Shown piece after piece: positions 8,001 through 11,098 of a DNA stretch of 14,574 bases; the stretch's first letter is position 1, and each line of letters opens with the position of its first letter. This DNA comes from a virus (lineage: Duplodnaviria; Heunggongvirae; Uroviricota; Caudoviricetes). The DNA lies in the IMG/VR virus record IMGVR_UViG_2526164634_000018; one strand, 5' to 3'. The position numbers were made by a program, and so were the translations under genes. Under the pieces are notes generated by a model that did not search any database, was not told where the DNA came from, and saw only the letters and a list, made by a program, of their open reading frames with translations.

Positions 8001-8386
8001 ACTGCGAGGTGGTTTTGCCCTTAATGGTGATGTCTTTTTCCGTCACCCAGCCACCGTTACGCTGTATCTGAACCAGCAGGCGGACTTCCGACGGATTCCG
8101 GTCCCCCTTTGAGGTGGTTTCCACCAGTGCCTGCACACCGAAGGTAAAGCGCAGACGGTCGATGTTTGCCGACGTGATGGTCCGGGTGATCGGCGTGTCA
8201 TATTTCACTTCCGTACCCAGCACCGTCTCGGAGCCGGAGGATTCAAATCCCTCCGGCGGTGTCTGCTCCTGCTCACCTGCCCGGAACACCACCGTGACAC
8301 CGGATATATTGGTATTCCCCTCACTGTCCAGCACCGGCGTACTGTTCAGCAGCACGCTTTTTAATCCGTCCACCGGACCTTCAACC
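5008..8386 (-). pseudogene. J: Tail tip / host-specificity protein J, large 3' fragment (codon ~37 to stop), separated from its start by IS copy 2
   Basis: 1121-aa ORF; the first ~780 residues ([16 protein letters not shown]...[41 protein letters not shown]...) are near-identical to lambda gpJ as I recall it, while the C-terminal ~340 residues diverge. The upstream reading frame runs directly into the IS end at 8387. Confidence 0.9.
8379..8386. repeat. 8-bp target-site duplication CTTCAACC (right flank of IS copy 2)
   Basis: Identical 8-mer immediately outside both ends of the IS (8379..8386 and 11091..11098); 8 bp is the usual duplication size for IS66-family elements. Confidence 0.85.
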
Positions 8387-8411
8387 GTAAGCGGCTCGCC
8401 AGAACCGTATT
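8387..8411. repeat. IS66-family right terminal inverted repeat (copy 2)
   Basis: GTAAGCGGCTCGCCAGAACCGTATT, identical to the copy 1 right end. Confidence 0.7.
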
Positions 8412-8416
8412 GATAT

Positions 8417-9988
8417 TTACTGAGAGGTCAGATCAACTTTCCAGGGCAACAGATCGCGTACCCGGTTTGCCGGCCAATCCTGGATATGCTCAATGACGTA
8501 ACGCAGCCATTTTTCTGGTTCCACATTGTTCAGACGGCATGTGCCGATCAGCGAGTACAACACCGCCGCATGTTCGCCACCGCTGTCGGAACCCGCGAAC
8601 AGCCAGTTTTTCCGGCCTACGGCCACTCCCCGTAAGGCGTTCTCTGCGATGTTGTTGTCGATTTCCACCCAGCCATTACTGCAGTACACGTTCAGGCCAT
8701 CCCACTGTTTCAGCAGGTATGCGAACGCTTTTGCCGTATCCGAGTGACGCGACAGTGTTTTCATCTGAGTCTGTATCCAGTCATACAGTGACTGCATCAG
8801 TGGCGCAGCTCTGGCTTTTCTTGCCGCCAGACGCTGTTCTGCTGTACATCCCCGGACTTCTGCCTCTATGGCATACAGTTCACCGATACGCTGCAGGGCT
8901 TCCGTGGTGATGTCGGTGGGCACTCTTGCATGCACATCGTGGATTTTTCTCCGGGCATGAGCCATACACGCGGCTTCCGTTATTCTGCCGGATTCGTATA
9001 ACACCCGGTAACCACCGTAAGCATCGGCCTGAAGCACACCGCTGTAACCGGCCAGATGATTTTGTGGATGGATACCTTTCCGGTCCGGTGAGTACGCGAA
9101 CCAGACCGCCGGGGGCATTTCCGAACCGGCGTTACGGTCATCACGGACGTAGACCCACAGCCGGGCGGTCCGGGTTTTACCGCTGCCCGGCTCCTGGACC
9201 GGGACGGGGATATCATCAGCATGGACTTTACCGGGCATCAGCACATACTGGCGCAGGACGTCATACAGCGGCTCCAGCAGTTCAGCAACGGCACCTGTCC
9301 AGCGCCCCAGCGTGGCGCGGCTCAGCTCCACGCCCTGGCGACGGTATATTTCTGACTGGCGGTATAACGGCAGATGGTCTGCATATTTCCCGGTAACAAC
9401 ATGGGCCAGAAGCCCCGCTCCGGCATAACTGCGTGCAATGGGTTTTGAAGGTACTGTTGCCTGCACGATATGGTCGCACCGACAACAGGCCAGTTTCGGA
9501 CGTTGTGTTTCGATAACCTTAAAGGCGCTGCTGATAAGCTCCAGTTGCTCTGACACATCACACCCCAGAGGACTGAGGTCACCACCACAGGCCGGGCAGC
9601 ATTCCTCTTCCGGCCGGATGACCCGGGTTTCACGGGGAAGTGAGGCCGGTAACGGTTTACGGGCTGAAGACTGGCGCAGGGCGGATGGCAGTACCGGGTC
9701 ATATTGCTCACCCAGCGTTTCCGCCATTTCTTCCTGAAGTGCGCTGATTCGCTCCTGTGCTTCCTGTATCTGCCGTTCGGTTTTAGCGCGAAGTTTTTCT
9801 GAGCTTTTACCGAACTGCATGCGCTGCAGTTTCGCAACCAGCGCCTTCAGCCGGTTGATTTCGGAAGCATAAGCCGCCACCCGCTGTGAGAGCAGGCGGT
9901 TGTATTTCGCCATCTGGCGGATGGTGTCCTGTTGCGTCTGCAACAGTGCCCGCAGGCGGGCATTCTCATGAGCAAGTGAGGTGTCCAT
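8417..9988 (-). CDS. tnpC: IS66-family transposase (orfC), intact 523 aa
   Basis: [54 protein letters not shown]...; about a dozen amino-acid differences from the copy 1 reading across 487 aligned residues; typical IS66 TnpC size. Confidence 0.9.
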
Positions 9989-10007
9989 ATCCTCACTTTA
10001 CAACGGG

Positions 10008-10356
10008 TTATATGCGGATGCCAGCGCGTTCCGTTCGTTTCGGGTGCTTCCAGTCGATGCCTTCGAGAAGCATGGACAACTGAGCCGGAGTAAGGTGAAC
10101 CTTTCCATCGCGGGTGACCGGCCAGACGAAGCGGCCCCGCTCCAGGCGTTTGGTGAAGAGGCACAGTCCGTCACTGTCAGCCCACAGCACTTTTTATCTG
10201 GTCACCCCGGCGTCCGCGGAAGATGAACAGATGCCCGGAGAACGGGTCATCCTTCAGGACGTTCTGAACTTTTGAGGCCAGGCCGTTAAAGCCATTTCGC
10301 ATATCGGTGATACCGGCAACCAGCCAGATACGCGAACCGGCAGGGAGAGATATCAT
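10008..10356 (-). pseudogene. tnpB: IS66-family TnpB (orfB) with a 1-bp insertion frameshift at 10191..10195
   Basis: Minus strand reads MISLPAGSRIWLVAGITDMRNGFNGLASKVQNVLKDDPFSGHLFIFRGRRGDQIKSAVG*; the rest (LWADSDGLCLFTKRLERGRFVWP...) resumes in another frame as the 60-aa ORF 10008..10190. Copy 2 has ATAAAAAG where copy 1 has ATAAAAG. Confidence 0.85.
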
Positions 10357-11005
10357 CAGTGGCTGCTCCCTTTCATTTCGCGGATAAGTGTCTGTAATAA
10401 CGCCGGTGTCAGTTCACCTTTCAGCCTGAGAGTTCCGGCCGGCAGAACCAGCTCGCAGCACAGACTGTCTGGCAGTGTATTTATCTGTTCAGGTATCTGC
10501 ACTGGTGCCGGGATTTTATATCCGGCTCCGGTGTTAACGTCACGGGAAGTAGCGATGTTTCATGTTCGCCGGGTCGTTGCAGGCCACCGTTACGCCAGAG
10601 ATGCCGCCAAGTTAAAGAGCAGGTTATCGTTAATTCCATTCTCTCGAGCTATTTGTGCGACACAGGCACCGGGTAAAAGAGTTTGCTGAACCAGTCTCCA
10701 TTTAAACTCCGGTGAAAATCGGTTCCGGCGGGGTTTCTCTGCTTTCACAGGCTGAGTCACGGTCGGGGCTGAAGGGTATCGCCCCGGGAAAGAGCCCGGG
10801 CCAGTTGCCCGCAGGAATATTCACCGGAAAGAGGCCAGTCAGTGAATACCTGGTGAAATCGCCTCACCAGAGAAAAAATGGCGGTTTTGCTGACACCAGT
10901 CTGCGCAGAAATGCGCGGGTACGACAGTGACTCGTCAAATCTCAGCTGTAGCACACGCAGGATCAATTCTGGATTATCTGCCAGTACCGCTTTTCGTGCA
11001 TTCAT
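10356..11005 (-). pseudogene. Degenerate IS66-family orfA region: 82-aa N-terminal HTH ORF (10757..11005) followed by TnpA-homologous sequence in at least two other frames
   Basis: ORF MNARKAVLADNPELILRVLQLRFDESLSYPRISAQTGVSKTAIFSLVRRF... is homologous (~35% identity by eye) to the copy 1 orfA N-terminus. Downstream, KPRRNRFSPEFKWRLVQQTLLPGACVAQIARENGINDNLLFN and TWRH...LLPVTLTPEPD appear in different frames separated by stops, against one continuous 225-aa frame in copy 1. Confidence 0.7.
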
Positions 11006-11065
11006 CTTAAATGTCCTTTTACTGCGAAAATGGACATTAGTATCGGAAACAGGAAAGGGAGGCGA

Positions 11066-11090
11066 AAGACGGTTTAAATGATGCGCTTAC
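11066..11090. repeat. IS66-family left terminal inverted repeat (copy 2)
   Basis: Reverse complement reads GTAAGCGCATCATTTAAACCGTCTT, beginning GTAAGCG like the right end. Confidence 0.7.
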
Positions 11091-11098
11091 CTTCAACC
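11091..11098. repeat. 8-bp target-site duplication CTTCAACC (left flank of IS copy 2)
   Basis: Identical to 8379..8386. Confidence 0.85.

Follow-up and report, generated by a model that had tools for sequence, protein, structure and literature searches.

Here we present an analysis of a lambda-like prophage in which the tail gene J has very probably been interrupted by transposition of IS679 into codons 34–37, with an 8-bp target-site duplication and subsequent inheritance within a lineage, as judged from sequence comparison. The window (the whole stretch of DNA analysed, 14,574 nucleotides) is the complete NCBI contig AIHD01000054.1 of assembly GCA_000250275.2. When 8387..11098 is excised in silico, a single open J frame of 1159 codons is obtained; its start codon is the ATG at 11199, its stop lies at 5008–5010 and its product begins MGKGSS. 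Both the continuity of this frame and its sequence are as given in a preliminary description of the window. The interruption of J by IS679 is real but ordinary prophage decay, in an enteropathogenic-type E. coli lineage, and is of a kind already known: the insertion sequence (IS) has been described, the gene is well known and the consequence is a familiar one.

Gene content of the window

The minus strand carries, in order, H', M, L, K, I, an open reading frame (ORF) of 112 residues, J::IS679, lom and the side-fibre genes, and these are followed by an IS66-family element on the plus strand (10..2707). The neighbours of J were assigned by Pfam matches to Lambda_tail_I, NLPC_P60 (K), Phage_tail_L, Phage_min_tail (M) and Tape_meas_lam_C (H). 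The 112-residue lipoprotein encoded between I and J found no match in Pfam, NCBIfam, PADLOC or the PDB, its one match being to phrog_914, a family of unknown function. Downstream of J, lom is a full-length Ail/Lom ORF flanked on both sides by terminator-like hairpins on its own strand (4989–4970 and 4237–4208), and the preliminary description was thus right to call the gene intact and equipped with its own terminators. In relatives, the prophage copy adjoins tccP2 or EspF-repeat genes. Coordinates are collected in Table 1.

Table 1 Features of the J::IS679 region, in positions of the window
Feature	Position	Strand	Basis or remark
lom, intact, 199 aa, unaffected	4341..4940	-	Pfam Ail_Lom, profile 1-199/199, E = 6e-126
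3' J fragment: codons 35/37-1159 and stop	5008..8386	-	Pfam J domains; identical 1121-aa product in AAJX02000044.1
Target-site duplication, copy 1 (CTTCAACC)	8379..8386	.	Adjoins the tnpC-side IS end; one copy in the empty site of relatives
IS679 (IS66 family), 2704 bp, order tnpA-tnpB-tnpC	8387..11090	-	99.7% full-length identity to annotated copies
Terminal inverted repeat, tnpC end (GTAAGCGGCTCGCCAGAACCGTATT)	8387..8411	-	Sequence of the end
tnpC, intact 523-aa DDE transposase	8417..9988	-	Pfam LZ_Tnp_IS66, zf-IS66, DDE_Tnp_IS66, DDE_Tnp_IS66_C
tnpB span, frameshifted by an extra A at ~10195 (AAAA to AAAAA)	10008..10356	-	Gene caller: 59-aa TnpB_IS66 fragment only; reference 115 aa
tnpA span, three single-base indels (~10792, 10610, 10520) and three substitutions	10356..11005	-	Called as 82-, 56- and 48-aa fragments
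Terminal inverted repeat, tnpA end (GTAAGCGCATCATTTAAACCGTCTT, read on the minus strand)	11066..11090	-	Sequence of the end
5' J fragment, 41 aa: codons 1-36/37 and KRII-stop read from the IS end	11074..11199	-	Translation; identical product on 7 public contigs
Target-site duplication, copy 2 (CTTCAACC)	11091..11098	.	Read from the window sequence

Anatomy of the insertion

The element is bounded by a perfect 8-bp direct repeat, CTTCAACC (8379–8386 and 11091–11098), in keeping with the clean duplication reported in the preliminary description; the flanking 8-mers do not differ. A search of both strands found a single further copy of this 8-mer in the window, at 3994. The element proper occupies 2704 bp on the minus strand, in the same orientation as J, and the span previously given for it (8379..11098) takes in both copies of the repeat. 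A match of 8 bp at fixed positions is expected by chance about once in 65,536 cases. More decisive than these odds is the empty site: the insertion is firmly supported because three complete E. coli genomes, FDAARGOS_1059, 602687 and O111:H2 12A, match the reconstructed site (600 bp, with one CTTCAACC) at 100% identity, and in all of them J is annotated as intact, with 1159 residues.

In the event that we propose, a copy of IS679 would have jumped into codons 34–37 of the lambda-like J, and repair of the staggered target cut would have duplicated 8 bp (CTTCAACC). J is thereby split after codon 36 into a 41-residue J' peptide and a J body lacking both promoter and ATG. The 3' piece indeed contains no ATG start, and its earliest candidate start is a GTG at 8373, which would give a product of 1121 residues. 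A simple insertion that parts the start codon and the first 36 codons from the rest of the gene, as put forward in the preliminary description, agrees with both the in-silico excision and the empty site in relatives; of the fragment sizes given there, about 36 codons upstream is accurate, whereas the downstream piece holds 1123 J codons rather than about 1120.

Assignment of the element to IS679

Megablast searches against complete E. coli genomes and plasmids returned many full-length matches of 2704 bp at 99.7% identity. The matched copies, on chromosomes as well as plasmids, are labelled by PGAP as 'IS66-like element IS679 family transposase'; upstream lie tnpA (216 residues) and tnpB (115 residues). 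By convention, two copies represent the same IS at a nucleotide identity of at least 95%; at 99.7% over 2704/2704 bp, the element is by its nucleotide sequence IS679, a described member of the IS66 family. Membership of that family had been proposed in the preliminary description, and the nucleotide match and the TnpC domains together make it more precise.

Apart from the integrity of tnpA and tnpB in the present record, the features that define the IS66 family are found here. TnpC is a DDE transposase with IS66-type domains, aligned by the Pfam search over positions 1–283 of 284 of the DDE_Tnp_IS66 profile (1.3e-103) and scoring 474 bits against NCBIfam transpos_IS66 (NF033517), for which the cut-off is 180. 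The terminal inverted repeats are imperfect and open with 5'-GTAA (GTAAGCGGCTCGCCAGAACCGTATT and GTAAGCGCATCATTTAAACCGTCTT); both termini read GTAAGCG, and the repeats match at 17 of 25 positions when counted by eye. The target-site duplication is 8 bp long, with CTTCAACC flanking the element at either end and present as a single copy in the empty site of relatives, and the other insertions of the family compared here also duplicate 8 bp (AATAATCC, TGTTCATG and CCATAAAC). The accessory genes tnpA and tnpB lie upstream of tnpC in the right order and position, both frameshifted in the present record; in reference copies, which are 99.7% identical, TnpA has 216 residues (NF038385, 284 bits) and TnpB has 115 (NF033819, 129 bits).

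Filled sites in other assemblies

Gene calls on seven public contigs, each from a different assembly, yield an identical 41-residue J'–IS fusion; AAJX02000139.1 and AIHB01000036.1 are among these contigs. The tnpA-side junction is thus present in seven assemblies: the longer contigs share the junction sequence, and the others end 15 nt into the IS, these 15 nt being specific to IS679. The tnpC-side junction, together with an identical downstream J product of 1121 residues, is found in AAJX02000044.1; AAJX02 we take to be EPEC strain B171. No filled J site was found among complete RefSeq E. coli genomes, and an exact scan with 40-nt junctions of the GTDB species-representative genomes returned nothing, as expected where one E. 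coli genome represents the species. The closest-looking matches in complete genomes (H1–H3) were considered as filled sites and rejected: they contain a different insertion, of an IS66 element of 96.5% identity with the target-site duplication CCATAAAC, and their J is intact. Judged by its shared junctions and by the empty sites, J::IS679 is inherited, common to a lineage of at least seven assemblies and derived relative to intact J.

These junctions bear on whether reads containing repeats were joined wrongly, so that the IS was placed in a J that is in reality intact. The consensus does look to be of low quality, with seven single-base homopolymer indels relative to all relatives, and the other IS in the window, at 10..2707, has mutually mismatched flanks. 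However, an exact 8-bp repeat abuts exact IS termini at both junctions, the tnpA-side junction occurs in seven independent assemblies and the tnpC-side junction in a second assembly, and a contig of 1991 bp (NMLS01000164.1) links an IS679 end in K, by way of I, to the same J junction. Misassembly is ruled out by this recurrence of the junctions in other public assemblies, and we give it next to no probability.

Frameshifts in tnpA and tnpB

The window copy of IS679 differs from the reference at seven places, all within IS positions 299–896. Four of these are single-base indels in homopolymers (window ~10792, 10610, 10520 and 10195) and three are substitutions; tnpC has no nucleotide difference from reference IS679, as none lies beyond IS position 896. 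The frameshifts are probably sequencing errors rather than real mutations, because other assemblies with the same insertion are without the indels that they cover and because homopolymer deletions occur elsewhere in the record. In AAJX02000139.1, tnpA is intact (216 residues), and AIHB01000036.1 is without the deletion at ~10792 (10788 in the minus-strand alignment), the sole indel covered by that contig. Three further single-base homopolymer deletions, at 1186, 3375 and 12964, lie outside IS679 and are absent from every relative.

The less probable reading, to which we nevertheless give some weight, is that the J-resident IS679 is a dead, non-autonomous copy with genuine tnpA and tnpB frameshifts, mobile only with proteins supplied in trans by other IS679 copies. 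The four indels and three substitutions do disrupt both accessory genes, and the substitutions are atypical of homopolymer errors. Against this, all four indels fall in homopolymer runs and resemble the three that are private to this record outside the IS, and in the two other assemblies with the same insertion neither the intact tnpA nor the one covered indel site has the change. At one variant site compared by eye, the window has A where reference IS679 has T and the ISCro1-like copy described below has G, so that no sign of variants arising by mixing with that copy was seen at this site.

Recurrent IS66-family insertions in the tail module

The second IS66-family element in the window (10..2707, plus strand, 2698 bp) is ISCro1-like by PGAP annotation in relatives. 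It is inverted relative to the IS679 in J, and its two flanks in the window mismatch each other; in relatives it has an 8-bp duplication, TGTTCATG. We also considered whether the two IS66-family copies, which lie inverted to each other, had given rise to an inversion, and rejected this for the current state of the window, as the duplication flanking IS679 is unbroken and J has remained colinear.

K and J are found with and without IS679 in all four combinations. Both genes are uninterrupted in 602687. IS679 is in K only, in the opposite orientation and with the target-site duplication AATAATCC, in FDAARGOS_1059 and 12A; it is in J only in the window, JADDTA010000064.1 and JADDTK010000122.1; and it is in both K and J on one short contig, NMLS01000164.1. 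In ETEC O114:H49, an IS66 element of 96.5% identity lies 11–18 bp upstream of the J ATG, with the duplication CCATAAAC, and J is intact. No shared target motif was seen among the four IS66-family insertion sites.

This pattern of repeated hits probably reflects neutral decay and recombination among paralogous prophages. Because IS679 is found in K and in the 5' end of J, a related IS before the J ATG and an ISCro1-like element between side-fibre ORFs, the tail-tip module in this family of effector-associated lambdoid prophages could instead have been hit by IS66-family elements at a frequency above chance, through a regional target preference or through selection to lock in a virulence-carrying prophage by loss of its tail, a reading that we hold to be improbable.

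Expected consequences for the prophage

gpJ is the tail-tip and host-recognition protein of lambda, and lambda J mutants make no tails. [quoted passage not shown] Because J is split, and given the role of gpJ in the tail tip as known from lambda genetics and from this structure, the prophage would not be expected to form tails, or infectious particles, by itself.

Late transcription would traverse tnpA, tnpB and tnpC in the sense direction, and a truncated J (residues 39–1159) translated from the GTG at 8373, on late-operon transcripts or by read-through from tnpC, might be imagined still to work. A GAAGG motif lies 3–4 nt upstream of this GTG, and the tnpC stop lies 44 nt upstream on the same strand. 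However, the motif is weak and its spacing to the start codon short, and the truncation would remove part of the conserved N-terminal hub region, in which the protein is near-identical to lambda J (PMC10721106). We therefore regard a working truncated J as highly improbable.

According to the preliminary description, infective particles would probably not be made unless the IS excised precisely. The first part of this statement is supported, with qualifications, whereas precise excision would not be the only means of rescue: a paralogous J could also be recombined in, or sister lambdoid prophages could complement the defect. Per E. coli genome, the median number of regions homologous to the 5' end of J is 2 and the maximum is 7. 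In EHEC prophage pools, as documented for O157, defective members are repaired or complemented by recombination and by shared morphogenesis genes, and interactions between prophages still allow defective O157 members to be released and transferred (PMC2669165).

These same observations, the number of J 5' regions per genome and the release and transfer of defective O157 prophages (PMC2669165), would also fit an insertion that is functionally inconsequential, the prophage being already defective or obtaining tails or intact J from sister lambdoid prophages. The ISCro1-like IS66 element next to the side-fibre genes, and the frameshift at 3375 in a fibre gene, point the same way. Set against an inconsequential insertion, the 3' portion of H, the genes M, L, K and I and what remains of J all have open frames within the window, side fibres are dispensable in lambda, the frameshift at 3375 may be a sequencing error, and apart from J::IS679 nothing in the window clearly abolishes an essential function; we consider such an insertion doubtful, and loss of tail formation through the split J the better reading.

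For annotation, J in this prophage is best recorded as one IS-disrupted pseudogene rather than as two ORFs, with the element entered under the name IS679. J::IS679 provides a clean lineage marker for the E. coli assemblies that have it in common, and it is a further probable example of IS-driven immobilisation of lambdoid prophages, here one that adjoins type III effector genes in relatives. It raises no new biological question.

Comparison with known systems

IS679 was reportedly described by Han and colleagues in 2001 from plasmid pB171 of EPEC B171, and is said to be 2704 bp long, with imperfect inverted repeats of 25 bp, an 8-bp duplication and a requirement for all three ORFs in transposition. 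The element in J resembles it in length (2704 bp), in its GTAAGCG termini, in its imperfect inverted repeats of about 25 bp, in its 8-bp duplication and in the order tnpA–tnpB–tnpC. It departs from reference copies at seven places in tnpA and tnpB, four of them single-base indels and three of them substitutions, probably as a result of sequencing error. The ISCro1-like element belongs to the same family as IS679 and has the same gene order, with 94–97% identity across tnpB and tnpC, but it diverges at the tnpA end and in the left inverted repeat (GTAACCGG...) and is 2698 bp long.

The restored J is homologous to lambda gpJ over its full length and lies downstream of I in a lambda-type tail operon. 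Alignment to lambda J had been proposed in the preliminary description; by phmmer against chain J of PDB 8IYK, the restored protein aligns over residues 1–835 and 866–1158 (E = 0), and its residues 1–835 pair with lambda residues 1–835 along their whole length, with few substitutions. The order of the genes, H-M-L-K-I-J-lom-stf, is likewise that of lambda. By contrast, the restored J has 1159 residues rather than 1132, its C-terminal receptor-binding part is matched with a higher score by the J variant 9wca, at 626 bits, than by lambda J, at 319 bits, and the extra gene for the 112-residue lipoprotein lies between I and J.

Inactivation of prophage morphogenesis and packaging genes by insertion sequences is known from EHEC, one example being nu1 of Sp4 in O157 Sakai (PMC2669165). 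As in that prophage, an IS would here have inactivated an essential late gene of a lambdoid prophage with virulence cargo, whereas the two cases differ in IS family, in host lineage and in the gene that was hit (J in the present case).

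IS66-family insertions in K and upstream of J

IS679, the element that interrupts J in the window, also occupies K of the same prophage in FDAARGOS_1059 and O111:H2 12A, where it is in the opposite orientation, with the target-site duplication (TSD) AATAATCC, and J is intact. The K and J insertions lie together on the contig NMLS01000164.1, whereas both sites are uninterrupted in 602687. Every one of the four combinations of K and J states is found among the strains, a distribution that requires recombination, parallel insertion or excision. A further IS66-family element, 96.5% identical to IS679, lies 11–18 bp upstream of the J start codon in the prophage of E. 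coli O114:H49 90-9280 (L001, an ETEC strain; 9420-12124), with the TSD CCATAAAC; the same insertion is present in ETEC-2264 and LR882978. The J reading frame is uninterrupted by this element, yet cut off from I and the late operon.

Coordinates of features in the window and of K insertions in relatives
Feature	Window position	Strand	Remarks
ISCro1-like IS66-family element, 2698 bp	10..2707	+	flanks 2-9 and 2708-2715; related positions 2714-2876 and 2866-2885
C-terminal receptor-binding region of restored J	about 5008-5890		residues 866-1159
Terminator-like hairpin	11242-11222		after the 112-aa ORF, directly before the J ribosome-binding site
112-aa predicted lipoprotein ORF, MNKTILFCTIIALTGC	11266..11604	-	with lipobox; in insert between I and J
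K insertion site of relatives	12822-12829		gene K; K::IS679 at FDAARGOS_1059 (L003) 12032-14735 and NMLS01000164.1 (L008) 1-125

The left-end element and assembly quality

The ISCro1-like element at the left end of the window is inverted relative to IS679, with tnpB and tnpC sharing 94–97% identity between the two. FDAARGOS_1059 and AAJX02000044.1, the latter from another assembly with the same J insertion, carry a clean ISCro1-like insertion (TSD TGTTCATG) between side-fibre ORFs of 1314 bp and 270 bp; in the window this site is uninterrupted. The element's flanks are hybrid, since the right flank, TATTTTCG, falls within a second, 91%-identical copy of the 270-bp ORF and the left flank, of 9 bp, agrees with the insertion site in the relatives. 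Their source would be either IS–IS recombination between paralogous prophages or misassembly.

Seven single-base indels separate the window from all close relatives (1186, 3375, 12964, 10195, 10520, 10610 and 10792). All seven fall in homopolymer runs. Their effects are a truncated tnpC ORF in the left element, a 437-aa fibre gene split into parts of 311 and 92 aa, and broken tnpA and tnpB genes in IS679. The pattern suggests consensus errors in the draft assembly.

Cargo, fibre and receptor-binding alleles

The insert between I and J has a GC content of 33%. Its predicted lipoprotein matched only phrog_914 (unknown function), with no match in Pfam, NCBIfam, PADLOC or PDB, and the I–J junction of L001 lacks the gene; we guess that it may be extra cargo of the superinfection-exclusion type. 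Type III effector genes lie just past the fibre genes of the same prophage in FDAARGOS_1059 (L003 228-1685; a split tccP2) and 602687 (L012 179-931; encoding an EspF-repeat protein), by which the J-disrupted prophage is assigned to the effector-carrying lambdoid type.

Almost all substitutions cluster in the side-fibre gene (2915-3983), which holds 44 of 47 differences against AAJX02000044.1 and 44 of 49 against FDAARGOS_1059. With positions 3984-8386, covering lom and the portion of J downstream of IS679, identical to AAJX02000044.1, this clustering suggests that recombination replaced the fibre allele. The receptor-binding region of restored J scores 626 bits against PDB 9wca ('A8 gpJ 713', a non-lambda J variant) and 319 bits against lambda J, so its receptor specificity may differ from LamB.
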